In this document: positions 5,600-34,545 of the stretch, in pieces
Numbering within the stretch: position 1 is the stretch's first letter
How the letters are laid out: the number at the start of each line of letters is the position of its first letter
IMG/VR virus record: IMGVR_UViG_3300045988_033283
Location: 1-34,545 of that record
Source: a virus
Length of the DNA stretch: 34,545 nucleotides
Reading direction: 5' to 3' (one strand)
Notes under the pieces: model-generated
What the model saw: the letters and a program-made list of their open reading frames with translations, nothing else
What the model was told of the DNA's origin: nothing
Database searches by the model: none
Translations under genes and position numbers: made by a program

Positions 5600-7078
5600 T
5601 TAGATTCTGAGAGTTACGCGCAGGCGTGGGTTCAATCCCGTGCCGCGCTCGGTCTTTTCATATTCTATTCGTTCCGCCATGCCTTTCAGCAGGCGGTTGC
5701 GGTCTTCACTGTCGAGTGTCCAGTATTCGTCCAATGCCTTGGACAGCACCGGGATTCGTTTTATGTCGCGTTCGGGTTCGGCGGCTTGCAATGCTTCAAG
5801 GCGCGCCGTCAGTTCGGCCTTTTCCGCGTTGACCTTTTGCACCCTTTGCAGGTATGTGGTTCTGTCGTATATGCCTGTTTCGTAGGCTTCGCAGGCGCGT
5901 TCGAGCATTTTCTGCCGTTTGTCTATCTCTGCCTCTAGGACTTGCAGTTCGTTGGTGTTGTCATTCGCTTTTGTTTCGTATTCCGCCCACACGTAGGTCA
6001 GGCGTTCCAATTCAGCTTGTATGGCGTCCACCGTCAGCCGTTCCACTATGTCGAGTTTCGTGCTTTTGGTCGTGCAGCCGAACGTCTTGCATATGAGGTA
6101 TTCCGCTTGCGCGCCGTTGGTGCGTTGCATGGTCTTGCCGCATTGAGCGCATACGACCAGTGATGCCAACGGGTTGCGGTTTGTGTGTGCGTAGCGTGTG
6201 CGTGTTTCCATGGTGCGCAGGCGTGCGGCGCATTGGTCGAAAGTGTCTGTACTGACTATCGGCTCGTGTCTGCCTTGCACGTATTCCATGCCGCTGTTAC
6301 GTATGTAGGTTTCTTTTATTTCCCCGTCGATTATTCGGCGGTTTTTTATTTTTCGTTTGGTTTGCAGTTCTCCGAGGTATGTGCGGTTTCGCAGTATTTC
6401 GCCGATTCGTGTGCGGGTGAAGTCGTTGCCTGTTCGTTGTTTGACGCCGGACGCTTGGAGTTCGCGAAGAATATCGTTGATTTTTGCACCTTGAGCGTAT
6501 CGGTCGAATATTAGGCGCACGATGTGCGACTCGTGTGGGTCGGGGCATAGCGTCCACCCTTTCCCGTCCTTGCGTTTGCCATACCCGTATGGTGGAACGC
6601 TGCCGATGAAATATCCGTCGCGTTGCGCTTGGAGTCTACCGCGCAGCAGACGGCGTTTTATCGTCTTGTATTCGCGGCGGCTCATGAACAGTCCAAACTC
6701 GAAAAATTCTTCGTCAAACTCATCATCACCTGCAAGGTCGTACACCTTGTTAAGCGTTAGGATTTTCGTGCCGCTGAATTGGAATGTTCGGAGTATACGC
6801 GCTTGGTCCTCCCCGTTTCCGCGGCTGAGGCGTTCGAGTTCGACACATAGGACGCCGGTATACAGTCCCATCTCCACGGCCTTCAGCAGGCGTTGCATTT
6901 GAGGTCGCGCGTCTATGCTCTCCCCCGATACTATTTCACGGTATATGTGTCTTTCGTCTACGTGTATGCCCATGTTCGCGGCCATGTCGCGGAGCATGGT
7001 TTCGTGTTTGCTTAGCGTGTTTTCAAGTCCCGCTTCTTCGTCTATGCGGGATTTTCGCAGGTACATTGCGTATGCCAT
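5600..7078 (-). CDS. int: Large serine recombinase (phage integrase)
   Basis: ORF track 492 aa. N-terminal resolvase domain with YLRKSR catalytic-serine motif, recombinase domain, Cys-rich zinc ribbon (CAQCGK...CKTFGC) and C-terminal coiled coil. Confidence 0.95.
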   Translation of the reverse strand: MAYAMYLRKSRIDEEAGLENTLSKHETMLRDMAANMGIHVDERHIYREIVSGESIDARPQMQRLLKAVEMGLYTGVLCVELERLSRGNGEDQARILRTFQFSGTKILTLNKVYDLAGDDEFDEEFFEFGLFMSRREYKTIKRRLLRGRLQAQRDGYFIGSVPPYGYGKRKDGKGWTLCPDPHESHIVRLIFDRYAQGAKINDILRELQASGVKQRTGNDFTRTRIGEILRNRTYLGELQTKRKIKNRRIIDGEIKETYIRNSGMEYVQGRHEPIVSTDTFDQCAARLRTMETRTRYAHTNRNPLASLVVCAQCGKTMQRTNGAQAEYLICKTFGCTTKSTKLDIVERLTVDAIQAELERLTYVWAEYETKANDNTNELQVLEAEIDKRQKMLERACEAYETGIYDRTTYLQRVQKVNAEKAELTARLEALQAAEPERDIKRIPVLSKALDEYWTLDSEDRNRLLKGMAERIEYEKTERGTGLNPRLRVTLRI

Positions 7079-7085
7079 TCATCAT

Positions 7086-7385
7086 CTAGTCCTTTCTTCG
7101 GTGTAGTAAAAATTGTGCAAATAGTTGTATTTCTTCAAGTTCTTTGTCGGTGTAAATCCGGTTTGAAAAAGTTATCTCCCGTTGCGGCGTGCCATGCACT
7201 AATTCCTCAATCGTTACACCGAAATACTCGGATAATTTGAGCAATGTCGGCAAGCTGATATTTTCGGCGCTCCGGTTGAACCATGAATTAACCGCCGATG
7301 GGCTGATTCCGCAGTCTGCCGCCATCTTTCGACGTGAAACGCCTTTTGCGCTCATAAGTGCGCGAAGATTGTCGCAAAATGCCAT
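7086..7385 (-). CDS. XRE/CI-like HTH repressor (no peptidase domain)
   Basis: HTH KGVSRRKMAADCGISPSAVNSWFNR. I start it at MAFCDNL (ATG 7385) because aaggggg lies 9 nt upstream; the ORF track allows an extension to 7430. Confidence 0.8.
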   Translation of the reverse strand: MAFCDNLRALMSAKGVSRRKMAADCGISPSAVNSWFNRSAENISLPTLLKLSEYFGVTIEELVHGTPQREITFSNRIYTDKELEEIQLFAQFLLHRRKD

Positions 7386-7441
7386 GTCGTAAAACCCCCT
7401 TTCGTGTCGAAACGTCGTCGTCCCGTGCATTTCGCCTCTTT

Positions 7442-7514: not shown

Positions 7515-7531
7515 AAATTGTGTTGCAATTT
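7515..7531. promoter_or_regulatory. Candidate operator palindrome AAATTG-tgttg-CAATTT overlapping the -35 of the rightward early promoter
   Basis: Perfect 6-bp inverted arms with the same half-site as 7484-7501; centres about 30 bp apart. Confidence 0.45.
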
Positions 7532-7551
7532 GAAATTTATGGGTGTATAGT
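7523..7551 (+). promoter_or_regulatory. Rightward early promoter: -35 TTGCAA, 17-bp spacer, -10 TATAGT
   Basis: ttgcaa 7523-7528 and tatagt 7546-7551; about 60 nt upstream of the Cro-like gene. Confidence 0.6.
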
Positions 7552-11508: not shown

Positions 11509-12330
11509 ATGAAATACACGATATTCGGCTTCAGCCAAGAGCAAGTCCTTAATCTGTGCGATGAGCATCAATCAATAGACGAACGCGACCTCATGATTCT
11601 GCGATGGATTATGGACTTCTATTTTGGTGGCATGGAGAAGAGGGTAATAGATGGGGTCGAATATGGGTGGGTCAATGCTTCATACGTATGCGACGAGCTA
11701 CCGATTATGCACCTCAACCCCGAAGCCGTAAGGCGCAGGCTCAAGAAGCTGGTGAAGTTCGGGCTGCTATATCATCAAAAAGTCAAGAACAGCGAAGTAG
11801 GCACGCGAGCGTATTACCGCCCAACCGAACAGGCCGTACAACTTCAAAGTGATACCCGTATCACTTCAAAGTGCGACGGGGGTACAACTTCAAAGTGCGA
11901 CCCCGTATCACTTCAAAGTAGCAACAAAGATTCTTCTATCAGTGACCCATCCATCACCAATCCATCTATCAAATGCGATAAGCCCTCGCGAAAGAGGGAG
12001 CCGCGCCACAAGTACGGAGAGTACCAGAACGTCCTTCTCAGTGACTCAGACATGGAGAAGCTAAAAGCCGAGTTCCCAACGGACTGGGAGGGGAGAATCG
12101 AGCGGCTCAGCTACTACATGGAATCGAAGGGCGTGAGTTACAAGAATCATCTGGCAACTATTCGGAACTGGGCACGGAAGGACAAGGAAGAGAAGAGGGG
12201 CACTGTTTCACGTGAAACATCAACAGGATTCAACAAGAAGGTAGACGCCGACTACTACTACCAGAGCACCGGTGACGAGGAGCTGGACAAGGTTCTGGAG
12301 GTCGGAAAGTACGCGCCGAAGACGCGATAG
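11509..12330 (+). CDS. Replisome organiser / DnaD-like replication initiator
   Basis: N-terminal winged-helix-like region (VRRRLKKLVKFGLL), C-terminal DnaD-like region (YKNHLATIRNWARKD), internal iterons, followed by a DnaC-like loader. A GTG at 11497 is an alternative start. Confidence 0.75.
   Translation: MKYTIFGFSQEQVLNLCDEHQSIDERDLMILRWIMDFYFGGMEKRVIDGVEYGWVNASYVCDELPIMHLNPEAVRRRLKKLVKFGLLYHQKVKNSEVGTRAYYRPTEQAVQLQSDTRITSKCDGGTTSKCDPVSLQSSNKDSSISDPSITNPSIKCDKPSRKREPRHKYGEYQNVLLSDSDMEKLKAEFPTDWEGRIERLSYYMESKGVSYKNHLATIRNWARKDKEEKRGTVSRETSTGFNKKVDADYYYQSTGDEELDKVLEVGKYAPKTR
11836..11921. repeat. Iterons: four copies of ACTTCAAAGT(G/A), arranged as two about 45-bp units, inside the replisome organiser gene; candidate ori
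   Basis: 11-mers start at 11841, 11863, 11887 and 11910 (22-24 bp spacing). Extended units are GTACAACTTCAAAGTG and CCGTATCACTTCAAAGTG. Confidence 0.8.
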
Positions 12331-12364
12331 AGACAAAGCCGCGATAGAGAGAGGAAGGATAATC

Positions 12365-13204
12365 ATGGACACGAACGGAATCATCGAGGGGCTTGCCAAG
12401 GCGGCAGCCCAGAACCACAAGCCGCACGAGGGTGACTACATCAAGGACGGCCTGCTCTACTGTGGAAAGTGCCACACGCCCAAGCAGTGCGAGATTGAGT
12501 GCGGCGGCAGGGTACTCAAGCCGTATTGCATGTGCAAGTGCGAGGTAGAGATGGAGGAAAGGCTCAAGGAAGAGGACAGGGCACGCGAGAGGATGCAGCG
12601 CGTGGACAGGATGCGCAGCACCGGCTTCCCGGACTCCGAGATGCGGGAGTGGACGTTCGCCAACGACGATGGCAAGGACGCGAGGACGATGGCGGCTATG
12701 AAGCGCTACGTCGAGAAGTTCCCGCAGATGCTGGAGAACGGCACCGGCCTTATGCTGTACGGGAACGTCGGAAGCGGGAAGAGCTTCGCCGCAGCATGCA
12801 TCGCCAACGCGCTCATAGAGAACGGCACGCCGTGCCTAATGACCAACTTCCAGCGCATCGTGAACAAGCTCTCGAACGGCTTCTCAGGTAGGCAGGAGTA
12901 CATCGACGGCCTCCAGAAGTTCGACCTGCTGGTTATCGATGACTTCGCCACCGAGCGTAAGACAGAGTACATGACCGAGCAGGTCACCGCCGTGATTGAC
13001 GCCCGCTACCGCTCGAAGCTTCCCCTGATAGTCACGACGAACATCAACCCGCGCGACCTCATGGCGGCAGACGGGATAGGCGAGCAGCGTGTGTACAGCA
13101 GAATCATGGACATGTGCGTTCCGGTGGCGTTCAACGGCTGCGACCGCAGGCGCTCCGAGTATGCCGCAAGGACGGCAGCAGCAAAGGAGCTGCTGGGGCT
13201 GTGA
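12365..13204 (+). CDS. DnaC/IstB-like AAA+ helicase loader with an N-terminal Cys-rich zinc-ribbon-like region
   Basis: Walker A GNVGSGKS, Walker B LLVIDD, CGKCHTPKQC...CMCKC. ATG 12365 follows gaggaagg. Confidence 0.9.
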   Translation: MDTNGIIEGLAKAAAQNHKPHEGDYIKDGLLYCGKCHTPKQCEIECGGRVLKPYCMCKCEVEMEERLKEEDRARERMQRVDRMRSTGFPDSEMREWTFANDDGKDARTMAAMKRYVEKFPQMLENGTGLMLYGNVGSGKSFAAACIANALIENGTPCLMTNFQRIVNKLSNGFSGRQEYIDGLQKFDLLVIDDFATERKTEYMTEQVTAVIDARYRSKLPLIVTTNINPRDLMAADGIGEQRVYSRIMDMCVPVAFNGCDRRRSEYAARTAAAKELLGL

Positions 13205-13506
13205 CCGAGCGCGAGCTTTCGCAGGCTCGCAGCCTACAGGCGGAGTTGGACGCGCTCCGCAGGGTTGCGACCCGCGAGCCAAGCAAGGACGTGCTGAGGG
13301 CGATAGACAGGCAGGCGAGGGCCGTGGAGTCGGCAAGGCTTGAGGTGATGGCATTCATAGCGACGATACCTGACCCCGGAATCAGGGCAATCGCGGTTAT
13401 GAGGTTTCTAGAGGGCAAGAGCTGGGAGACGATAGCGAGGCGCATGCACTATGACAGGACTTCGCCCGCGAAGCAGCTCAGGAGGTTCCTCCGTGGTAGA
13501 ATGTAG
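13201..13506 (+). CDS. Sigma-70 region-4-like HTH regulator (RinA/ArpU/DUF1492-type candidate late activator)
   Basis: GTG overlaps the previous stop (GTGA). IRAIAVMRFLEGKSWETIARRMHYDRTSPAKQLRRFL resembles a region-4 HTH. Confidence 0.65.
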   Translation: MTERELSQARSLQAELDALRRVATREPSKDVLRAIDRQARAVESARLEVMAFIATIPDPGIRAIAVMRFLEGKSWETIARRMHYDRTSPAKQLRRFLRGRM

Positions 13507-13535: not shown

Positions 13536-13566
13536 GCGGCTCGCAAGTCACGACCTTGCGGGCCGC
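13536..13566 (+). terminator. 12-bp-stem hairpin after the regulator gene; no U tract
   Basis: gcggctcgcaag-tcacgac-cttgcgggccgc. Confidence 0.35.
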
Positions 13567-13594
13567 ACCCATATATGAGCGAAAAAAGGTTCAG

Positions 13595-13670
13595 ATTCTC
13601 GCTTGCGACTGCTCGTTATAGGTGTATACTAGTAACCGCAATAGGGGAAAGCGAGAGAAAGGAACCCCAA
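13595..13670 (+). promoter_or_regulatory. Promoter/leader cassette copy 1 (-35 TTGCGA 13603-13608, -10 TATACT 13625-13630)
   Basis: Shares ATAGGTGTATACTAGTA and the GAGAGAAAGGAAC leader with the copies at 13897, 14481 and 18350. Confidence 0.6.
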
Positions 13671-13856
13671 ATGGCAAACACAATCTTCGACACCGACTTC
13701 CAGCCCGACGATGAGGTTCTCCTCTATGATGGCTCACGGTTCCATTGGAGCGGAAAGGTCGGGGACATGACGGAATCCGACAAGGAAGACTACGACGTGG
13801 CCACGTGGTTCCTGCTGGATAAGATTGAGGAGTACAAGGCGCTCTTCGTAAGGTAG
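13671..13856 (+). CDS. Cassette-1 micro-protein (61 aa), unknown function
   Basis: ATG lies 5 nt after the conserved aaaggaac leader. The ORF-track extension to 13515 is a read-through of the promoter. Confidence 0.7.
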   Translation: MANTIFDTDFQPDDEVLLYDGSRFHWSGKVGDMTESDKEDYDVATWFLLDKIEEYKALFVR

Positions 13857-13890
13857 GAGAAGGCCCCCAGAAATGGGGGCTTTCTTCTTA
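13857..13890 (+). terminator. Intrinsic terminator (GAAA tetraloop)
   Basis: gagaaggccccca-gaaa-tgggggctttctt, followed by a T-rich tail. Confidence 0.8.
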
Positions 13891-13896
13891 GAAAAA

Positions 13897-13971
13897 CATT
13901 CCATTCTCGCTTGAAACCGAATAGCATAGGTGTATACTTGTTTCAGCAAGTGAGAGAGAAAGGAAACGGCA
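13897..13971 (+). promoter_or_regulatory. Promoter/leader cassette copy 2 (-35 TTGAAA 13911-13916, -10 TATACT 13933-13938)
   Basis: attctcgcttg, ataggtgtatact and gcaagtgagagagaaaggaaac are shared with the other copies. Confidence 0.6.
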
Positions 13972-14193
13972 ATGGGACACAACGACACGATGAAGGCTGA
14001 GCTTGATGCGGTAGTCAGCAGGACGATGAGCGAGTACGGCGAAGCTGGAGCAAAGGTCGTGTACTGCGAGCACAACGAACTCGGGGTGACGTTCGCGGCA
14101 GTTCTCGGCGATAGCGGAACCGTCTACCACTTCGACGCATACGGAGCAGTCACGAGCTACGTGACCACACCCAAGACGGTGGCAAGCTGCTAA
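13972..14193 (+). CDS. Cassette-2 small protein (73 aa), unknown function
   Basis: ORF track; ATG 5 nt after the conserved leader. Confidence 0.7.
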   Translation: MGHNDTMKAELDAVVSRTMSEYGEAGAKVVYCEHNELGVTFAAVLGDSGTVYHFDAYGAVTSYVTTPKTVASC

Positions 14194-14229
14194 TCTCAAG
14201 AACCACGACGATTAGGAAGGAAGTTCGCA

Positions 14230-14448
14230 ATGGTTATCGGTCTTCACAAGTACGGAATGCGCCTACGCCCGTATGGCATTGGTTGCCAGCCGATGCAAGG
14301 ATTCGTTTGCTGCGCTGACGGTGCGGTTGTTGACGGGCATAGATACCACGACTTCATCTACTACACCGAGCGCCTTAGCAAGGAAGATGCGAGCAATTAC
14401 GACCTCGATTATTTCGGCTACACGCTGATGGAAATCAACGAGAAGTGA
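14230..14448 (+). CDS. Small protein (72 aa), unknown function; second gene of cassette 2
   Basis: ORF track; RBS aggaagg 8 nt upstream. Confidence 0.7.
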   Translation: MVIGLHKYGMRLRPYGIGCQPMQGFVCCADGAVVDGHRYHDFIYYTERLSKEDASNYDLDYFGYTLMEINEK

Positions 14449-14451
14449 AAC

Positions 14452-14478
14452 AAGGCCTCGCTTCGGCGGGGCTTTTCA
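14452..14478 (+). terminator. Intrinsic terminator (TTCG loop)
   Basis: gcctcgc-ttcg-gcggggc followed by ttttc. Confidence 0.75.
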
Positions 14479-14480
14479 AT

Positions 14481-14620
14481 GCCAGAAATTCCCCGCAAGT
14501 TCTCCTTGCTTCCAATGTGATATAGGTATATACTTGAAAACAGCGAAAGGGAAAGGGCAAACGGCAGATACCATCGAGATACAGGCCGTCACTGCAAATC
14601 CCAGAGAGAAAGGAAACGAA
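14481..14620 (+). promoter_or_regulatory. Promoter/leader cassette copy 3 (-35 TTGCTT 14506-14511, -10 TATACT 14529-14534), with a leader about 45 nt longer
   Basis: tataggtatatacttg and agagagaaaggaaacgaa are conserved; extra sequence sits between them. Confidence 0.55.
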
Positions 14621-14743
14621 ATGGAGAAAGTGGACGGGCGCGAACGCTACTCGCTGTGCGGCGGCGCGGTCAAGGCCGAGAACTACCTGCATCACGCACT
14701 CACGGGCGAATGGCTCGAGTACCGAATGATGGGCGGAGAGTAG
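14621..14743 (+). CDS. Cassette-3 micro-protein (40 aa: MEKVDGRERYSLCGGAVKAENYLHHALTGEWLEYRMMGGE)
   Basis: ATG 4 nt after the conserved aaaggaaac leader. The ORF-track start at 14534 lies in the leader. Confidence 0.5.
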   Translation: MEKVDGRERYSLCGGAVKAENYLHHALTGEWLEYRMMGGE

Positions 14744-14901
14744 CCTCGACACCGGGCCACATTCCCGGGGCGGCACCGGTTCCGTCGGTCTCCGATAGAC
14801 CATCAGACGGGCGTTCCAGCCGGTGTCGTGCCGGGGGCGTGGCCCCTACACACGCCCCGCCTTCCCGTGGGAGGCACATACGAGAGAACGGAGAAGAGCA
14901 C
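14744..14901 (+). other. Very GC-rich, apparently non-coding structured spacer (four consecutive predicted helices)
   Basis: 86 of 120 bases are G/C in 14741-14860 (hand count). Pairings: 14747-14755/14820-14828 (9 bp); 14782-14791/14797-14810; 14834-14841/14851-14858; 14860-14865/14869-14874. All reading frames are Arg/Pro/Gly junk. Confidence 0.4.
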
Positions 14902-15090
14902 ATGAAGGACATGGCATCGACTGGGGGCGCAAAGGCACCGTCGAGGTGCGGGATACGACACACGCGCCTCCCGTGGAGGGCCGCGTGCGCAGCGGTCGGG
15001 TTCATCGGACTCTGCTGGGTTATCGAGTACGTGTTGATACCGGCTGTGTTGTGGGCGGTACTCGCTCTGTTCGGGGAGGTTCCGGCATGA
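14902..15090 (+). CDS. Small predicted membrane protein (62 aa)
   Basis: ATG follows ggagaagag. Hydrophobic C-terminal half AACAAVGFIGLCWVIEYVLIPAVLWAVLALF. Its stop overlaps the rusA start. Confidence 0.5.
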   Translation: MKDMASTGGAKAPSRCGIRHTRLPWRAACAAVGFIGLCWVIEYVLIPAVLWAVLALFGEVPA

Positions 15091-15482
15091 CGGCCCGCAT
15101 CGAGTTCTCGGTCGGTCCCGTGGCTGGCCTGAGAGCAGAGAGGGAAGTCACGGCGGCATGCGAGGAGGCGATGGGCGCGGCAGATATCAAGGCCCCGGCC
15201 TTCGGTCCGCACGAGCCGGTGATAGCCACCATCGACGTCTACAGGCCGCTGCCGGACAGCAGACAGAGGTGCGTGCGCTCGGAGCCGGACACCTTCAAGC
15301 CCGACGCCGTAAGCGAGGCCAAGCTGGTCATTGACGCGCTGACCGGGGTTGCGTGGGCCGACGATGCGCAGGTCGTAGACCTGCACGTGAGGAAGCACCC
15401 GAGGGTGCGCGGGCAGGCCGAGCGCATGGACGTAACGATAGCGCTTGGATGGCCCGGGCGCGATAACGAAACGGAGGTCTAG
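15087..15482 (+). CDS. rusA: RusA-like Holliday junction resolvase
   Basis: YRPLPDS...KPDAVSEAKLVIDALTGVAWADDAQVVDLHVRKH matches the RusA core pattern. ATGA overlap with the upstream gene. Confidence 0.75.
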   Translation: MTARIEFSVGPVAGLRAEREVTAACEEAMGAADIKAPAFGPHEPVIATIDVYRPLPDSRQRCVRSEPDTFKPDAVSEAKLVIDALTGVAWADDAQVVDLHVRKHPRVRGQAERMDVTIALGWPGRDNETEV

Positions 15483-15484
15483 CT

Positions 15485-15994
15485 ATGGCATACAGCGACT
15501 ACGGCGCGTTCGTGTACCTCAACGGCGAGCGCAGAACCGACAAGGAGGACGTAGGAGTATACGACAGAGACGAGGCTTCCCTGCCTTCTGGACTCCGCGT
15601 GTACGCGAACATCATTAAGCATAGTGACGGATTCGAGTGGTTCGAGTTCTCGCACCATGGAGTCATGGGCGACGGCAATGTCCGCGTCGGGTGCTACAAG
15701 CAGGGTTGGCCAGAGGTCTACAAGTGGGAGGACGGCAAGGACAAGCCGACCCGATACACGTTCGATGACCTTTCCCGCAAGTTCGGGTGGGGCAATTACG
15801 AGGAGTACGGCGACACGAGGTACGCCGCCGACAAGTACGACGAGGAGTTCGACTTCCTTGGATGGCACTTCCACTTCTGGGGCGACAATACCGGCGGCAC
15901 TCCGAAATATGGTGCGACCATGAGCCGCGACGGAGAGACTTGGGAGTGCGATTACGACTGCATGTTCGGAGCTGGTTTTGATGACATTCACTAG
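15485..15994 (+). CDS. Hypothetical protein (169 aa)
   Basis: ORF track; RBS ggaggt. Confidence 0.75.
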   Translation: MAYSDYGAFVYLNGERRTDKEDVGVYDRDEASLPSGLRVYANIIKHSDGFEWFEFSHHGVMGDGNVRVGCYKQGWPEVYKWEDGKDKPTRYTFDDLSRKFGWGNYEEYGDTRYAADKYDEEFDFLGWHFHFWGDNTGGTPKYGATMSRDGETWECDYDCMFGAGFDDIH

Positions 15995-16037
15995 CGACGA
16001 ACGGCGCGAGGGTGGTCGAGAAGGAGGAAGACGAGTG

Positions 16038-16400
16038 ATGCAGGACTATCAAATGCTGGCCCTGAGCTACGCCGATGAGCTAGCCGACCTAAAGCGTCGG
16101 TACGCAAACCTAGAGCGCCATTGCCGGGGGCTTGAATCGAAACTGTCCAAGACGCGCGACCGCATGAAGATGTACCGCGAACGCTGCAAGGCGTGGGAGA
16201 GGGCGCTGGCCAACGTGGACAGTCTTCATTGGTGCTTTATGCGTGATGAAAAACCAACGTCATCGGATATGGCATATGGCGTAGCGGTATGTGCCGCGCT
16301 CATCCGCAAAGAGGTGGCGCCGACCTACCCGAGCGCAGATTGCGCGGAGCTGCTCCGCAAGGTTCTCAACCGCGCCCCAGAAACGGGCAAAACCGAATAA
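16038..16400 (+). CDS. Hypothetical coiled-coil protein (120 aa)
   Basis: ATG 16038 follows aaggaggaag; the ORF track allows a start at 15978. Confidence 0.65.
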   Translation: MQDYQMLALSYADELADLKRRYANLERHCRGLESKLSKTRDRMKMYRERCKAWERALANVDSLHWCFMRDEKPTSSDMAYGVAVCAALIRKEVAPTYPSADCAELLRKVLNRAPETGKTE

Positions 16401-16418
16401 CCGAGTTAAAGGAGAGCA

Positions 16419-16724
16419 ATGGAATATATCGATTTAGGCTATGGCTACAGGCTCCACAGGCGCGATTCCGCGAACTGGGAGTTGCAGGAGTTCCGCAAGC
16501 CGAGCAACAAGGGCTTCGCAAAGAACATGAAGGACAGAAGCCCCAAGTGGTGCGACTGCGGCAAGTTCTTCCAGAGCCTTAGTGCCGCGCTGCTAGCCGT
16601 CTACGAGCTTTTGTTGCGCAACGGCGATGAGGGGGCCGTTCAAATCAGGGATGCACTTTGCCAAGCCGAGAAAATCGAGCGCGACCTAAAAGGCGTGACG
16701 CTCGATTTTCGCAAGTTGCAGTAA
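16419..16724 (+). CDS. Hypothetical protein (101 aa)
   Basis: ORF track; RBS aaaggagag. Confidence 0.7.
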   Translation: MEYIDLGYGYRLHRRDSANWELQEFRKPSNKGFAKNMKDRSPKWCDCGKFFQSLSAALLAVYELLLRNGDEGAVQIRDALCQAEKIERDLKGVTLDFRKLQ

Positions 16725-16750
16725 CGGCATAACGACAGAAAGGAAGTCAG

Positions 16751-17149
16751 ATGAATATCGAACTACCCAAGGATGCGGAGGGTCGAGAGATTCCGCTGGA
16801 TGTTGACGCTCTGTACGACAAGAACGGCAACAGGGTCGAGGTGTTCAGGTGGAACTACGTCCGAGGCAGGAACAACAACTGGACATTCAATCGCCTGTTT
16901 GAGTTTGTCACAGTTCCGCTCTACCCGCAGGATTATTTCCTAACACCGCTAGACAGCTGGGAGAAGCTGGAAGAGGACTTGGGCAGAGCGTCAAAGCGCG
17001 ATGCTGTTGTCTCGTGCTGCCGGTACTTTACTGCCGATAAATGCGCTAATTGTCCGATTCACGGCAACGATAGCTGCTGCTTACACAAAGAAGAGCTCGC
17101 ATTCGGGGACATTCTCGACCGCATCCGCAAACTGAGGGGTGAGGGCTAA
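16751..17149 (+). CDS. Hypothetical Cys-rich protein (132 aa)
   Basis: ORF track; RBS gaaaggaag. C-terminal SCCRYFTADKCANCPIHGNDSCC...DILDRIRKL. Confidence 0.7.
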   Translation: MNIELPKDAEGREIPLDVDALYDKNGNRVEVFRWNYVRGRNNNWTFNRLFEFVTVPLYPQDYFLTPLDSWEKLEEDLGRASKRDAVVSCCRYFTADKCANCPIHGNDSCCLHKEELAFGDILDRIRKLRGEG

Positions 17150-17340
17150 TGTGCGACTACTGCAACGGATATAACCGTATCAATGCTACCGATGTCGGTT
17201 TCGACGTAATAAGCATCTGCTGGATGCCTGACGGACGCCCGGTGATTATGGTTGACCGTCCACACGACTACCATGGGAGCTGGAGCATTCCGATTAGCTA
17301 CTGCCCGTTCTGCGGAAGAAAACTAGGTGAGAGCAAATGA
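17149..17340 (+). CDS. Small zinc-ribbon protein (63 aa)
   Basis: CDYC...CPFC pairs; translationally coupled (TAATG) to the upstream gene. Confidence 0.65.
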   Translation: MCDYCNGYNRINATDVGFDVISICWMPDGRPVIMVDRPHDYHGSWSIPISYCPFCGRKLGESK

Positions 17341-17567
17341 CAACTAGAGCATCAGCCAAATACAAGGTGAGCAAGAGGGCAATCAAGCGCTACCTAGCCG
17401 ACCATGACCTCACGCAGAAACAGCTAGCGAAGATGGCAGGCATCTCGGAGGGTGCGCTAAGCGCCCTCATCCGCTTCCAGCGCGACATGCGCGTGGGTAA
17501 CCTGTTCGCGCTGGCAGACGCAATGCGGATGGACCCGCGCGACCTCGTTGAGAAGGTGGACGAATGA
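17337..17567 (+). CDS. XRE-family HTH protein (76 aa)
   Basis: LTQKQLAKMAGISEGALSALIRFQR; ATGA overlap with the upstream gene. Confidence 0.75.
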   Translation: MTTRASAKYKVSKRAIKRYLADHDLTQKQLAKMAGISEGALSALIRFQRDMRVGNLFALADAMRMDPRDLVEKVDE

Positions 17568-17926
17568 TTACCGACGAGAAGCGCCGTGAGGTAGCGGCGC
17601 GAATGAGAAACCAACTCACATACATGCGAGAAAACGAGGAGTACTACAAAAACGACCTCGACCTTGTGGAATGCGGCAACAGCGCCTATCGCAACATCGC
17701 GGATTCGGTAGAAAAAGGCGGCAACAACTACAAGGGCTATTACATCCCCATCGTCGAAAGGCTCGCCGATTTAATCGACCGCCCGACCACTACGCGCCAC
17801 GGCAAGTTCAAGACCAAGTACGGCAGGGAGACACCGTGCTGCGAGGTCTGCGGATATTCGATTGGCGACATGCGCTGGAACTATTGCCCGAAATGCGGGG
17901 CGGTGATTACAGATGCCAAGCGATAA
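17564..17926 (+). CDS. Hypothetical protein with a C-terminal zinc ribbon (120 aa); paralogue of the next gene
   Basis: DEKRREVAARMR ... ERLADLID ... CCEVCG...CPKCG. Confidence 0.7.
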   Translation: MITDEKRREVAARMRNQLTYMRENEEYYKNDLDLVECGNSAYRNIADSVEKGGNNYKGYYIPIVERLADLIDRPTTTRHGKFKTKYGRETPCCEVCGYSIGDMRWNYCPKCGAVITDAKR

Positions 17927-18143
17927 GGAGAGGCGCGAGGCCGTCGAGTTCCTGCGCACTCACAGGTGCGCCGACGAGGGCAGCGCGTACAAGACCGTAG
18001 GCAACTGCTACGGGTGCATCAAGGCGAGCAGGGCGCTGTTCGGGAACGATGACGCGCTCTGCAACCTAGACAGCTCGGGGCCGGGAATGTGGCAGAGGCT
18101 GGCAGACTTAATCGACGACGGAGGTGACGCGCATGGCAACTGA
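17913..18143 (+). CDS. Hypothetical protein (76 aa); paralogue of the N-terminal two-thirds of the previous gene
   Basis: DKERREAVEFLR ... QRLADLID. Confidence 0.65.
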   Translation: MPSDKERREAVEFLRTHRCADEGSAYKTVGNCYGCIKASRALFGNDDALCNLDSSGPGMWQRLADLIDDGGDAHGN

Positions 18144-18309
18144 AGCTCAAATCAAGGCCCAGAAGAAATACGACGCGGAGAATACGCGGCAGGTTCACCT
18201 GAAGCTGAACCGTCGCACCGACGGGGACGTGCTTGAAAAGCTCGACAGCGTGCCCAGCAAGCAGGGCTACATCAAGAGGCTGATTCGCGAGGACTTGGCG
18301 AAGGAATAG
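18133..18309 (+). CDS. Small ribbon-helix-helix-like protein (58 aa)
   Basis: ATG 18133 follows ggaggtg. KKYDAENTRQVHLKLNRRTDGDVLEKLDSVPSKQGYIKRLIREDL fits a beta-strand plus two helices. Confidence 0.6.
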   Translation: MATEAQIKAQKKYDAENTRQVHLKLNRRTDGDVLEKLDSVPSKQGYIKRLIREDLAKE

Positions 18310-18313
18310 CGAT

Positions 18314-18346
18314 ACGGGAATCCGAAAGGGTTCCCGTTTTCTTTTG
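18314..18346 (+). terminator. Intrinsic terminator (GAAA loop)
   Basis: acgggaatcc-gaaa-gggttcccgt followed by tttcttttgg. Confidence 0.8.
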
Positions 18347-18349
18347 GAA

Positions 18350-18430
18350 AACTTCCGGCGCTGGCTTGCACACCGACTCTATAGGTGTATACTAGTATCA
18401 GCAAGTGAGGGAGAGAGAAAGGAACCCGAA
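18350..18430 (+). promoter_or_regulatory. Promoter/leader cassette copy 4 (-35 TTGCAC 18366-18371, -10 TATACT 18388-18393)
   Basis: ctataggtgtatactagtatcagcaagtgagggagagagaaaggaacc is nearly identical to copies 1 and 2. Confidence 0.6.
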
Positions 18431-18634
18431 ATGCAGAACGTCAACATTACGAGAGTTTTCAAGAAGGACGGAAAGGTAACCACCATTCATTGCGGCGAAT
18501 GGCCCGACATCACTCCTTACACTAGGGTAGAAGTTGACGGAGAAAGGTTCTTCAAGCTTGCACGGTACGGCGAGCACAAGCTGTACAAGCCGAACAAGAA
18601 AACGCGAACGATGGAATTCGTGAAAAGCATCTAA
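18431..18634 (+). CDS. Cassette-4 micro-protein (67 aa), unknown function
   Basis: ATG 5 nt after the conserved leader; the ORF-track start 18344 lies in the promoter. Confidence 0.7.
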   Translation: MQNVNITRVFKKDGKVTTIHCGEWPDITPYTRVEVDGERFFKLARYGEHKLYKPNKKTRTMEFVKSI

Positions 18635-18645
18635 AAAAGAGACGG

Positions 18646-18680
18646 AAGGGGTCGCCAGAAATGGTGGCCCCTTTTCTCAT
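18646..18680 (+). terminator. Intrinsic terminator
   Basis: aaggggtcgcca-gaaa-tggtggcccctt followed by ttctcatt. The ccagaaatgg core is shared with the terminator at 13857-13890. Confidence 0.75.
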
Positions 18681-18746
18681 TCCCACAATTCCCGCTCTAG
18701 CTGTCGTATAATTTAGGAAGCGTAAAAAACCAACCGAAAGAGCTGT

Positions 18747-19153: not shown

Positions 19154-19381
19154 ATGAAAGAGTATCTTATTCCCGACAAGCCTTACAAAGTATTGAAATG
19201 GGGTGGCCTCATCGCACTTCCCGCAACTGCGGCGTTCGTGGGTACCGTAGGCCCTGCTTGGGGCTGGCCGAACGTCGATAGCGTCGTTTTGACGCTCAAC
19301 GCTGCGGGCGTTCTAATCGGCGCACTAATCGGAGTGAGTACCGCTACTTCAAAGCAGGTTGACGAAGGGAAGGTGGAGTAA
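19154..19381 (+). CDS. Holin (LL-H / Phage_holin_1-like)
   Basis: ORF track 75 aa. YKVLKWGGLIALPATAAFVGTVGPAWGWPNVDSVVLTLNAAGVLIGALIGVS; immediately precedes the endolysin. Confidence 0.85.
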   Translation: MKEYLIPDKPYKVLKWGGLIALPATAAFVGTVGPAWGWPNVDSVVLTLNAAGVLIGALIGVSTATSKQVDEGKVE

Positions 19382-20343
19382 TGGCTATCCATTTCATCGA
19401 CATCGCGTCATATCAGGCTGGGCTTGACTTGCGAGCGGCAGCAGCCGAAATAGACGGAGTTATCATCAAGGTGACCGAGGGCACGGGCTACGTCAACCCG
19501 TCGTGCGACAAGCACTGGGGTCAGGCATGCGATGCCGGCCTGCTTTGCGGCTTCTACCATTTCGCGGGAAATTCCGACCCCGTGGCGGAAGCCGATTACT
19601 TCATGCAGCACGCAGCGGGGTATTTCGGCAGCGGCGTTCCCGTCCTCGACTGGGAGGGCAATCAGGATGTCGCATGGGTCAACGCGTTCGTGCGCCGTGT
19701 GCATGACGTAAAGGGCGTTTGGTGCTGGATTTACGCAAATCCTTGGCGATTCAACCAAGGCGGCGTCGAGCAAAACTGCATGCGCTGGGTCGCGGCGTAT
19801 CCCGCAGCTCCTTCGCCCACATTCGCGCAGGCGGAAGGCTGGGACGCTCCCAGTGCCGATGGCGTTGTCGGCGCGTGGCAGTTCGCTAGCGATGGCCGCT
19901 TGTCGTGCTGGGGCGGAAACCTTGACTTCGACCTGTTCTATGGCGATGCGGCGGCTTGGCGAAAGTACGCGGGCGCGGCAAGCGCCCAGCATGAAGGCTG
20001 GATTCAGAAGGATGGCCGCTGGTGGTACCGCCACGCAGACGGGAGCTACACAAAGAGCGGCTGGGAGAAAATCGACGGCAAATGGTACCTCTTCGATGCC
20101 GACGGCTGGATGCTGACCGGATGGCAGCAGGTCGGCGGCAAGTGGTACTACCTCACCGATTCCGGCGCGATGGCTACCGGCTGGGTGCAAGATGGCGGCA
20201 AGTGGTACTACCTCGACCCGGACTCGGGCGCGATGCACGCGGCTGACGTGCAGAGCATCGGCGGCAAGTGGTATGCCTTCGGCGACAGTGGCGAGATGCA
20301 CTATGGCGTTGATTCTGATGCAAGCGGTGCATTGAAGTTGTAG
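19381..20343 (+). CDS. Endolysin: GH25 muramidase with C-terminal cell-wall-binding (CW_binding_1-type) repeats
   Basis: FIDIASYQAG...IIKVTEGTGYVNP...GFYHFA; five to six GW-x-GGKWYY-type repeats in the last about 120 aa. Confidence 0.95.
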   Translation: MAIHFIDIASYQAGLDLRAAAAEIDGVIIKVTEGTGYVNPSCDKHWGQACDAGLLCGFYHFAGNSDPVAEADYFMQHAAGYFGSGVPVLDWEGNQDVAWVNAFVRRVHDVKGVWCWIYANPWRFNQGGVEQNCMRWVAAYPAAPSPTFAQAEGWDAPSADGVVGAWQFASDGRLSCWGGNLDFDLFYGDAAAWRKYAGAASAQHEGWIQKDGRWWYRHADGSYTKSGWEKIDGKWYLFDADGWMLTGWQQVGGKWYYLTDSGAMATGWVQDGGKWYYLDPDSGAMHAADVQSIGGKWYAFGDSGEMHYGVDSDASGALKL

Positions 20344-21086: not shown

Positions 21087-22283
21087 ATGGATAAGACAAA
21101 AGTAACCTACATGGACGTCGATTCGCTGATTCCGTATGCCAACAACCCGCGATTGAACGACAACGCGGTGGATGCAGTAGCGGCGAGCATCAAAGAGTTC
21201 GGTTTCAAGGTTCCCATCGTCGTTGACGGCGAGAACGTCATCATCAACGTGCACACGCGGCTGAAGGCTGCGCACAAGCTGGGGCTGAAGCAGGTTCCCG
21301 TCATCGTCGCTGACGATTTGACGCCAGAGCAGGTGAAGGCGTTCCGCTTGGCAGACAACAAGACTGGCGAGCTTGCCGAGTGGGACTTTGAAAAGCTGGA
21401 CATAGAGCTTGACGGCATAGACGAAATCGACATGGGCGAGTTCGGGTTCGACGATGTTGACTTCGGAAACATTGATGCCGATAGCGACTTGGCTGGGAGC
21501 GACGCAGACGAGGATGTTCCCGAGCCGCCAGCGGAACCCGTGACGAAGCTTGGCGATGTGTACAGGCTCGGCAACCATATCCTGATGTGCGGCGACAGCA
21601 CGAAATCCGATGACGTTCGCAAGCTCATGCAGGCAGGAGATGGGGGGAGCGCTGCGCTCCTTATCACAGACCCGCCTTACAACGTCGACTACACTGGCGA
21701 GAGCGCCAAGGCTATGAAAATCGAGAACGACAGCATGGACACCAGCGCCTTCCATGACTTCCTTCTCGCGGCGTTTGGCAATGCCTACGACGCGATGGCT
21801 GACGGAGCTGCATTCTATGTCTGGTATGCGAGCAAGGAAGTCGTGAACTTCGCAACCGCCGTCGAGGACGCTGGGCTTACCGTCAAGCAGGAGCTGATTT
21901 GGAACAAGAACTCGCTCGTTATGGGTAGGCAGGATTACCAATGGAAGCACGAGCCGTGCCTTTATGGCTGGAAGGAGACTGCACCCCATAACTGGTACGG
22001 GGACAGGAAGCAAACGACTGTCATTGACTGGGATAGGCCGACGAAGGCCGACCTGCATCCGACGATGAAGCCAGTCGGCTTGTTCGACTATCAGATTCGG
22101 AATAGCAGCGCCAAGAACGATATCGTCCTCGACCTGTTCGGCGTCAGCGGTACGACGATTATCGCGTGCGAGCAGAATGGGCGCAGGGCGCGAGTTATGG
22201 AGTATGACCCGAGATATGTCGACGTGATTGTCGGCAGGTGGGAGAAGCTCACCGGCATGGAAGCTGTGAAAGTGGAGGATTGA
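21087..22283 (+). CDS. ParB-like nuclease domain fused to an N6/N4 DNA methyltransferase
   Basis: N-terminal LIPYANNPRLNDN...HTRLKAAHKLG (ParB/Srx-like); C-terminal DPPY motif and LDLFGVSGTT AdoMet-binding motif. Confidence 0.9.
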   Translation: MDKTKVTYMDVDSLIPYANNPRLNDNAVDAVAASIKEFGFKVPIVVDGENVIINVHTRLKAAHKLGLKQVPVIVADDLTPEQVKAFRLADNKTGELAEWDFEKLDIELDGIDEIDMGEFGFDDVDFGNIDADSDLAGSDADEDVPEPPAEPVTKLGDVYRLGNHILMCGDSTKSDDVRKLMQAGDGGSAALLITDPPYNVDYTGESAKAMKIENDSMDTSAFHDFLLAAFGNAYDAMADGAAFYVWYASKEVVNFATAVEDAGLTVKQELIWNKNSLVMGRQDYQWKHEPCLYGWKETAPHNWYGDRKQTTVIDWDRPTKADLHPTMKPVGLFDYQIRNSSAKNDIVLDLFGVSGTTIIACEQNGRRARVMEYDPRYVDVIVGRWEKLTGMEAVKVED

Positions 22284-34360: not shown

Positions 34361-34545
34361 ATGGCGAAGATAGACGAGACCGTCAAGGTGATGATGCTCA
34401 AAGGCGAGCGTGGCGCTGGCATCCAGAAAATCGAGAAGACCGCAAGTTCCGGGCTTGTCGATACCTACACCGCAACTTTTTCGGACGGTACCGCCGCTGG
34501 CAGCTTCACGGTAACCAACGGCGCAAAGGGAGACAAGGGCGAAAA
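34361..34545 (+). CDS. 5' part of the collagen-like tail fibre gene (continues at base 1 of the window)
   Basis: ATG 34361 follows gatggggtg; the frame runs off the window end and is in phase with 3..695. Confidence 0.85.
   Translation, partial: MAKIDETVKVMMLKGERGAGIQKIEKTASSGLVDTYTATFSDGTAAGSFTVTNGAKGDKGE
34434..34545. repeat. Second copy of the 112-bp terminal duplication
   Basis: Identical to 1-112. Confidence 0.95.

Follow-up and report, generated by a model that had tools for sequence, protein, structure and literature searches.

A reused promoter and leader module probably marks exchangeable small-gene cassettes in a temperate siphovirus group of the human gut

Why should a small phage genome carry, on one strand, four copies of the same stretch of about 95 bp, each ending just before the start codon of a different gene? 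The question is raised by IMG/VR virus record IMGVR_UViG_3300045988_033283, whose full 34,545 nucleotides were analysed here (hereafter the window). The original prediction had read three neighbouring units and a fourth farther downstream as one promoter and leader module placed ahead of unrelated micro-genes, and had suggested autonomous moron-type expression units under a common regulator, with repeats that could serve as recombination handles. Having compared the locus with its relatives, we consider it probable that the units are autonomous moron-type cassettes whose shared ends act as handles for homologous recombination, an analogue, in an uncultivated temperate siphovirus group, of the promoter-early stem-loop (PeSL) elements of T4-like phages.

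The repetition itself lies far above chance. A search of the window with ATAGGTGTATACT, allowing up to two mismatches, gave plus-strand matches at 13618, 13926, 14522 and 18381 and one more, at 7539, in the early switch promoter; these five matches compare with 0.13 expected, and none of 100 shuffles reached five. The sequence GAGAGAAAGGAA occurs exactly at 13653, 13954, 14604 and 18413 (0.25 expected at the search setting of up to one mismatch) and ends 5-7 nt 5' of the ATG in every copy. The four units can be aligned across ~95 bp and share one strand, and a profile built from relatives has only four matches in the whole window (E = 1e-17, 2e-14, 7e-11 and 7e-4), which start at 13577, 13887, 14499 and 18338. 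The repeated module thus stands as predicted. So does the proposed likeness of its -10 region to the switch promoter, where the same ATAGGTGTATACT search found the related core; TGGGTGTATAGT is also present at the switch promoter of relatives that have the window's switch type. The promoters and modules are as follows, the -35/-10 geometry of units 3 and 4 having been obtained by reading the sequence.

7523-7551, plus strand: early switch promoter, TTGCAA-17-TATAGT, with the related core ATGGGTGTATAGT.
13577-13670, plus strand: unit 1 module (TTGCGA-16-TATACT), with an A-rich patch, -35 at 13603-13608, core at 13618-13630 with the -10 TATACT at 13625-13630, a purine leader and the Shine-Dalgarno (SD)-like GAGAGAAAGGAA at 13653-13664.
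13890-13971, plus strand: unit 2 module (TTGAAA-16-TATACT), with a AGAAAAACATTCC patch, -35 TTGAAA at 13911-13916, core at 13926-13938, leader, and SD-like sequence at 13954-13965.
14481-14620, plus strand: unit 3 module with a long leader (TTGCTT-17-TATACT), with -35 TTGCTT at 14506-14511, core at 14522-14534, a 54-nt insert at 14549-14602 and SD-like sequence at 14604-14615.
18338-18430, plus strand: unit 4 module (TTGCAC-16-TATACT), with a GGAAAACTTCC patch, -35 TTGCAC at 18366-18371, core at 18381-18393, leader, and SD-like sequence at 18413-18424.

In order to determine how widely the module is used, we collected relatives by two routes: an exact search for the core-plus-leader pattern, which returned 23 IMG/VR contigs, and a search with the protein encoded ahead of unit 1, which returned 28 loci.

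13201-13506, plus strand: gene for a 101-amino-acid (aa) helix-turn-helix (HTH) regulator directly upstream of unit 1, weakly sigma-region-4/DUF1492-like.

Together with the window, the collection comprises 50 IMG/VR loci on ~38 distinct contigs and contains 117 module instances, 76 of which are unique. Every instance lies on the regulator's strand, and the one to five instances of a locus all fall between the regulator gene and the lysis cassette. Across the 63 unique short-leader copies TATAGGTGTATACT is nearly invariant, while the A-rich patch and the leader are moderately conserved, and GAGAGAAAGGAA is always linked to a promoter core 15-25 nt upstream (69-72 nt in long-leader copies). TAGGTG beside the -10 is nearly invariant across the family. 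A distant subgroup (loci L043-L048), whose regulator is ~52% identical, retains TAGGTGTATAGT but differs in the region upstream of it and in its leader (...CCAACCGAAAGG...). The window also contains a fifth promoter-like unit, at 18690-18746 ahead of the lysis genes, which reads TCTAGCTGTCGTATAAT followed by a leader with ...AACCAACCGAAAG...; it resembles the module variant of this subgroup (TCTAGATAGGTGTATAGT ... CCAACCGAAAGG), unlike the window's own modules.

The genes behind the modules are diverse. First ORFs (open reading frames) form 34 BLAST clusters, and one module flanks ~30 mutually unrelated small-ORF families across the ~38 contigs, which answers the question for which the original prediction had proposed a search of related genomes. 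Pfam matches among them are few (DarA_C, DUF3310, pentapeptide repeats with DUF5758, MazG and DUF7659), and PHROG matches are mostly to families without a function. The window's own cargo is listed below; labels beginning with F are those of the cargo types.

13671-13856, plus strand: unit 1 cargo, 61 aa (F01), an orphan confined to this phage group, with no Pfam or PHROG match.
13972-14193, plus strand: unit 2 cargo A, 73 aa (F07), which matches no known family.
14230-14448, plus strand: unit 2 cargo B, 72 aa (F02), with a DarA_C domain (Pfam 8.6e-10, 39.4 bits against a 27-bit cut-off).
14621-14743, plus strand: first ORF of unit 3, 40 aa, a DUF3310 remnant.
18431-18634, plus strand: unit 4 cargo, 67 aa (F30), with 14 homologue clusters and no Pfam or PHROG match.

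The claim that the cargo is unrecognisable and mutually unrelated therefore holds for most families and has to be given up for two ORFs of the window, the 72-aa DarA_C protein and the 40-aa DUF3310 remnant. The former provides the single hint in favour of the proposed anti-defence role of the cargo. F01 has 93 homologue clusters, none annotated, all on contigs of at most ~35 kb. Variable sites are enriched at third codon positions in F01, F02, F03 and F05, and the lengths of cargo ORFs are conserved even where identity drops to 53%; both observations speak for real coding genes. F30 matches both single-domain small proteins and 5-8 tandem stretches within proteins of 520-2700 aa, and by this comparison looks like a solo copy of a repeat unit.

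Comparative genomics establishes that the module is reused, that its cargo is shuffled and that crossovers fall within it. F02, the second gene of unit 2 in the window, occupies the first slot in locus L036 and a later slot in eight loci (the one nearest the lysis cassette where the map is known). F05, F06 and F10 likewise occupy different slots in different genomes, and F07, a unit 2 gene in the window, is found in the first slot of L031. There the upstream half of the module is identical to window unit 1 at 47/58 positions and to unit 2 at 33/58, and the leader is identical to unit 2 at 35/38 and to unit 1 at 29/43, which puts the junction at the invariant core. The F10 cassette has an identical promoter and leader in three slots, with the junction within the GAAAAA patch. 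The whole unit 2 cassette (13884-14519) is missing from L027, L029 and L037, in which the unit 1 terminator abuts the unit 3 promoter, and unit 3 of the window is a hybrid of a short-type promoter and the long leader. Unit 2 may bear a trace of exchange as well: the ribosome-binding site (RBS) region of F02 (14214-14229) resembles a remnant of a module leader, and the alignment of the window with L036, where the F02 gene lies directly behind a module, begins at 14214. The resemblance suggests that two cassettes were fused here with the loss of one terminator and one promoter.

Such junctions are concentrated at the modules, at which 45 of the 172 ends of homology fall, against 10.3% of the region (binomial p = 3e-9). 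The proposal that the repeats are recombination handles thus agrees with cargo found in differing slots, crossovers inside the module, the absence of a cassette in three relatives and this enrichment of breakpoints. Since the crossover points vary from case to case, the recombination would be homologous and not site-specific; an integron-like, site-specific exchange was considered and ruled out because the mapped crossovers lie at differing places in the module.

Are the units also autonomous, each closed by a terminator of its own? Folding places a strong intrinsic terminator behind each of units 1, 2 and 4 and another ahead of unit 4; their energies range from -16 to -28 kcal/mol and their z values from -3.6 to -6.0, and a T-run follows each.

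13536-13566, plus strand: GC-rich hairpin lacking a T-tract, in the gap that separates unit 1 from the regulator gene, -24 kcal/mol, z = -3.9, kept in relatives (CGGGCCGCACCCATATATG).
13855-13889, plus strand: intrinsic terminator closing unit 1, -26.9 kcal/mol, z = -5.0, followed by TTTCTTCTT.
14454-14479, plus strand: intrinsic terminator closing unit 2, -16.2 kcal/mol, z = -3.6, with a TTTTCAA tail.
18314-18347, plus strand: intrinsic terminator ending the unit 3 operon, -18.2 kcal/mol, z = -4.0, its T-tail extending into unit 4.
18645-18680, plus strand: intrinsic terminator closing unit 4, -27.7 kcal/mol, z = -6.0, followed by TTTTCTC.
14902-18309, plus strand: unit 3 operon, with a small membrane protein, RusA (15087-15482) and about ten further ORFs.

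The picture of terminator-closed units is therefore right for units 1, 2 and 4 and wrong for unit 3, which has no plus-strand intrinsic terminator between 14743 and 18314. On this ground unit 3 is the promoter of an operon of ~3.7 kb that includes RusA, as judged from the sequence, and not a micro-ORF cassette; likewise, none of ten long-leader units of relatives has a terminator after the first ORF. The notion of autonomous moron-type units built from one module has to be narrowed in the same way: reuse of the module and own terminators support it for units 1, 2 and 4, and unit 3 falls outside it. Nor does a canonical terminator precede unit 1, where we found instead the strong hairpin without a T-tract at 13536-13566. 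A conserved sequence, ACCCATATATG, follows this hairpin.

The 40-aa ORF at the head of the unit 3 operon consists of the N- and C-terminal ends of the 89-aa F17 protein of relatives joined together, and is therefore the remnant of an internal deletion. The Pfam DUF3310 match (1.7e-7) belongs to one cargo representative and was assigned to F17 by a sequence motif, the batch output naming no member. Elsewhere the F17-type gene is intact (89 aa, in L037) or frameshifted or fused (152 aa, in L027). To judge from these sequences, the first gene of the unit 3 operon is decaying in several lineages. Just 3' of the remnant, at 14754-14845, lies a near-perfect hairpin of ~92 nt (72% GC, -68.7 kcal/mol, z = -3.5) that is present in L038 (96.5% identity across it) and falls outside the aligned segments of most other relatives. 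It matches no Rfam family, and its central exact 34-mer is absent from IMG/VR; it may be an inserted palindromic element, a T-less terminator or a processing site.

The leader is the second constant part of the module. In its short form it runs ~30 nt from the predicted transcription start and is almost pure purine; lacking pyrimidines to pair with, it should stay unstructured. Its end, AGAAAGGA, is complementary to the 3' end of Gram-positive 16S rRNA (...CCUCCUUUCU-3'), the comparison sequence not being the host's own rRNA. By its composition, the short leader should drive strong translation regardless of the sequence of the cargo.

The extra leader segment noticed in unit 3 is present and measures 54 nt (14549-14602). 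It is strongly conserved: at least 20 distinct sequences contain it, upstream of five or more different first genes, and the 19-nt 'loop' ACATACCATCGAGAGACAG within it is almost unchanged across relatives. The three-helix hairpin predicted for the insert is no more stable than shuffles (z = -0.9). One pair is compensatory, in one lineage; among metagenome recombinants that same pair is G·U in two and broken in one, and another copy lacks the 5' half. RNA-level control by the insert, which the original prediction had raised, is accordingly no more than hinted at. With permissive settings, Rfam has no family on the whole window or on 14480-14900, sub-threshold microRNA-like hits being confined to the long hairpin. 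Furthermore, the long-leader element is duplicated within one contig (L058, at 6549 and 8168), occurs directly behind a terminator without its promoter half in L100, and is fused without an SD to the middle of a DUF3310 gene in L023; these cases read as further signs of frequent rearrangement at this element.

Taken as a composite element, the module would begin in the T-tail of the preceding terminator and continue through the A-rich GAAAAAnTTCC patch, a variable -35 and the core with its TATACT -10 into the purine-only leader (~30 nt), which ends in AGAGAAAGGAA 5-7 nt ahead of the ATG. Host RNA polymerase with the primary sigma factor would initiate ~7 nt past TATACT; such a promoter is consistent with the geometry and with the TATACT box, and at the switch promoter the related core has to function unaided by phage proteins. 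The AGAAAGGA of the unstructured leader would then pair with the 3' end of 16S rRNA and allow efficient translation of any ORF placed behind it, and the 5' end of the transcript may be protected. Flanking terminators would insulate each unit. Units 1, 2 and 4 would be self-contained cassettes for small accessory proteins, and unit 3 would combine the same promoter type with a longer leader to drive the RusA operon. Because the cassettes begin and end with the same sequences, homologous recombination could insert, delete, replace and relocate them while leaving the neighbouring genes unbroken.

Several observations weigh against this account. The shared -35 of the original prediction, spaced 16-17 bp from the -10 in all four window copies, loses ground in the family at large, in which it (cTTGCa) is 50-80% conserved, and the distant subgroup L043-L048 has no recognisable -35. 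The invariant TAGGTG does not fit the canonical TGn extended -10, because its TG lies one base too close, and other promoter-like sites in the window have a correctly placed TGn; a dedicated factor may therefore be involved. A canonical terminator is found on a given side of only about half of the unique instances: among unique short-leader modules, 35 of 64 have one within 90 nt upstream and 32 of 64 have one within 120 nt after the first ORF. F04 has no excess of third-position variation. The breakpoint statistic takes related genomes as independent, and mosaic breakpoints exist away from the modules too. Finally, we infer promoter activity, the form of polymerase, timing, translation and cargo function, and have counted this against the account as well.

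The odd register of TAGGTG invites a joint reading, possible but on balance unlikely, in which TAGGTG, which the switch promoter shares, and the leader, insert included, form the site of a dedicated phage or host factor, protein or RNA, in one co-regulated circuit. If it were true, the switch promoter, the accessory cassettes and the RusA operon would be co-regulated, and the operon leader would carry an undescribed cis-regulatory RNA. On this reading, the cassettes might also travel as excised mini-circles.

A rival account assigns control to the regulator gene. In an activator-dependent middle or late promoter regulon, the HTH protein of 13201-13506 would bind the module (for example at TAGGTG or the A-rich patch) and turn all cassettes on together. 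Gene order fits, since in almost every relative 115 bp separate a ~100-aa regulator gene from the first module behind it, and the Ltr activators are a documented precedent (PMC3753634). Activator-dependent promoters typically combine a weak or absent -35 with an invariant element next to the -10, as is the case here, and both the HTH segment of the regulator and the core are invariant in both subgroups. Source records label relatives of the regulator 'sigma24 family' or 'DUF1492' (the latter in one nr record), and these labels are joined by weak matches to Sigma70_r4_2 and to region 4 of extracytoplasmic function (ECF) sigma factors.

The identity of the protein is less convincing than its position. 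It matches phrog_36 'transcriptional regulator' at 9.6e-8; in Pfam, the best matches are Sigma70_r4_2 at 0.014 (in 3 of 11 homologues) and HTH_23 at 0.003, both below cut-off, with no DUF1492 match, and the match to ECF sigma factors has E = 0.07. The AlphaFold2 model (pLDDT, the predicted local distance difference test score, 79) has a long helical hairpin and three short helices. A Foldseek comparison of the model with the PDB returned nothing at E < 1, and the regulator profile matched PDB sequences only through spurious helical repeats. Hence, of the sigma-region-4-like gene said to precede the array, the position next to unit 1 holds and the likeness is marginal. There is also a 222-nt in-frame deletion (window-equivalent 13262-13483) between short CAGG(TT) repeats, which removes regulator residues ~22-95 including the HTH, so that a 27-aa mini-ORF is left. 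Four contigs of two diverged sub-lineages carry it (L051, 7054-7070; L056; L002; L013), all with intact modules, and common control by this regulator is therefore unlikely. Moreover, the terminase and structural genes, by whose control Ltr proteins are defined, have no module ahead of them, the protein has neither an above-cut-off Ltr-type Pfam match nor a fold match, and the same core occurs in the switch promoter, which must fire before the regulator exists. We regard such a regulon as rather improbable, and the common regulator of the original prediction is not supported, given the marginal likeness, the missing fold match and the HTH-deleted contigs.

Alternatively, the core could double as an operator, so that the repressor or a Cro-like protein binding (A/G)GGTGTATA(C/G)T at the switch and at the modules would silence the cassettes as a group in the lysogen, or shut them off together late. 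Repeated repressor sites are known as the stoperators of mycobacteriophage L5, and Streptomyces phage phiC31 has conserved inverted repeats near early promoters. Here, an asymmetric motif of 12-13 bp overlaps the -10 of the early switch promoter, recurs on the transcribed strand only and is conserved far past the needs of a -10 hexamer; between the two switch types, the repressors have 68% identity overall and almost the same HTH segment, which makes a shared specificity possible. However, relatives of the other switch type have a plain TATAAT switch promoter without the motif, yet their modules retain it, the motif is not palindromic, and a search with the half-site RGTGTWYAC matched only modules and not the operator region of the window. 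The apparent operator half-sites are the -35 of the divergent repressor promoter: an operator had been suspected from the likeness of GGTGTATAC to GGTGTTCAC and GTAAACAC near the switch of relatives, and was rejected when these proved to be the -35 (TTTACA) and spacer of that promoter. An operator role is thus quite improbable.

That the repeats are mainly translation signals, leader plus RBS, on genes transcribed by read-through from the switch promoter is very improbable: GAGAGAAAGGAA does stand 5-7 nt ahead of every ATG, all the genes lie within one long rightward direction of transcription, and the start-associated sequences of cluster K mycobacteriophages, for which such a role was proposed, match in position, orientation bias and restriction to non-structural genes (PMC3203893), but the best-conserved block is the -10-containing core, 30-40 nt upstream of the SD, and not the SD, most copies directly follow a strong terminator that would block read-through, the -35/-10 spacing is regular in all four window copies, and the distant subgroup retains the core with a different leader.

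Exchangeable cassettes thus remain the account we prefer, and among known systems they resemble the PeSLs most. PeSLs were described in T4-like myoviruses (Arbiol et al. 2010, PMC2839356; Comeau et al. 2014, PMC4122927) as cassettes of ~100 bp composed of an AT-rich patch, a sigma-70-like promoter, a G/C-rich terminator stem-loop and, at the 3' end, an SD with start codon; their crossovers map either to the AT-rich patch or to the stretch from the -10 to the ATG (PMC2839356). The composite build of ~100 bp is shared, as confirmed on the 63 unique short-leader copies, as are multiple copies in a variable region beside orphan ORFs (here one to five per locus) and indels or replacements bounded by the elements, and both PeSL crossover positions are seen here. 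The module sequence, however, is unrelated to that of PeSLs, and PeSLs reside in large virulent T4-like phages of Gram-negative hosts and have early promoters that follow the E. coli sigma-70 consensus, whereas the present genome, of ~34 kb, encodes a serine integrase and a CI-like repressor and belongs to a temperate, siphovirus-like phage of a probably Gram-positive host. On account of these differences in phage type and sequence we regard the module as an analogue, and not a homologue, of PeSLs. In addition, there are only 3-5 copies per genome, the stem-loop always lies ahead of the promoter, the 5' untranslated region is itself strongly conserved, and an invariant TAGGTG abuts the -10. 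Promoter and terminator activity and mini-circles have been demonstrated for PeSLs (PMC2839356), whereas the module is known from sequence alone.

Three other systems share single aspects. Like the morons of temperate phages (Hendrix and colleagues; reviewed by Cumby et al. 2012, PMC3594210), units 1, 2 and 4, though not unit 3, are at the sequence level units of one or two genes with their own promoter and terminator, and unit 2 is absent between the same flanking genes in L027, L029 and L037. Classical morons, in contrast, lack shared flanks and are thought to arrive by illegitimate recombination (PMC2839356), whereas one shared module would serve here as the site of recombination, and the GC content of the cargo (0.475-0.63) is not clearly atypical of the genome (0.564), the unit 4 cargo (0.475) being the one exception. 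The start-associated sequences (SAS) and extended SAS (ESAS) of cluster K mycobacteriophages, defined by the 13-bp GGGATAGGAGCCC that lies 3-7 bp ahead of a start codon (Pope et al. 2011, PMC3203893), are likewise asymmetric, RBS-containing motifs near the ATG, in one orientation, in the non-structural half and ahead of varied gene families. SAS elements, however, stand at many genes uncoupled from promoters and terminators, whereas GAGAGAAAGGAA is the 3' end of a promoter-leader unit, and a role in gene shuffling was not proposed for them. The Ltr late-gene activators (RinA, ArpU, LtrA/Sigma70_r4, LtrB/DUF1492 and LtrC, of the families ArpU, Sigma70_r4, DUF1492 and phi55 ORF34) are proteins of ~100 aa that activate a promoter just downstream (Quiles-Puchalt et al. 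2013, PMC3753634), and the window also encodes a ~100-aa, weakly sigma-region-4-like HTH protein immediately upstream of a promoter with a poor -35. Here, however, the promoters serve accessory ORFs and the RusA operon and not terS, morphogenesis or lysis genes, the profile search of the whole window placed no module ahead of the terminase gene, and the HTH of the regulator is dispensable for retention of the modules.

What kind of phage carries these cassettes? The window is a circularly permuted phage genome of ~34.4 kb, since bases 1-112 recur at 34434-34545.

5600-7078, minus strand: large serine recombinase.
7086-7430, minus strand: CI/RstR-like repressor.
12272-13204, plus strand: DnaC/IstB-like loader, among the replication genes.
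19154-20343, plus strand: Dp-1-type holin and GH25 endolysin.

The rest of the genome runs rightward, beginning at the switch promoter (7523-7551), in the order replication genes, 101-aa HTH protein, module region, holin and endolysin, and packaging and structural genes. The large terminase subunit (TerL) is 72% identical to that of Lactobacillus delbrueckii siphophages and was the only query to reach cultured relatives; the sole endolysin relative with an organism label comes from an Olsenella metagenome-assembled genome (54% identity). The host is probably Gram-positive, and the related contigs derive from human-gut metagenomes. The module region and the regulator had no match among the cultured phages of INPHARED (megablast, blastn and tblastn), and neither the module pattern nor the regulator profile detected a prophage copy among 185,579 species-representative genomes. 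A full-text literature search with the core motif returned just unrelated eukaryotic and viral sequences. Away from the modules, an ORF between the lysis genes and the terminase (21087-22283, 398 aa) has a ParB-like domain at its N-terminus and, in addition, an adenine DNA methyltransferase domain. Nine-base periodic repeats (GGnGAnAAG-like) at 65-562 and at 34498-34545 form a run that spans the circular junction; in frame, those at 65-562 would give Gly-X-Y triplets, which suggests a collagen-like segment of a tail fibre.

If the cassettes are what they probably are, composite terminator-promoter-RBS elements that express and swap orphan genes extend beyond T4-like phages to small temperate phages of the human gut. 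The module would mark the plug-in sites of accessory genes, among them candidate anti-defence or host-takeover genes such as that of the DarA_C protein, and a search for it retrieves ~30 accessory genes from metagenomes. Its combination of terminator, promoter, unstructured purine leader and extended SD may also represent a natural expression part that is insulated and independent of context.

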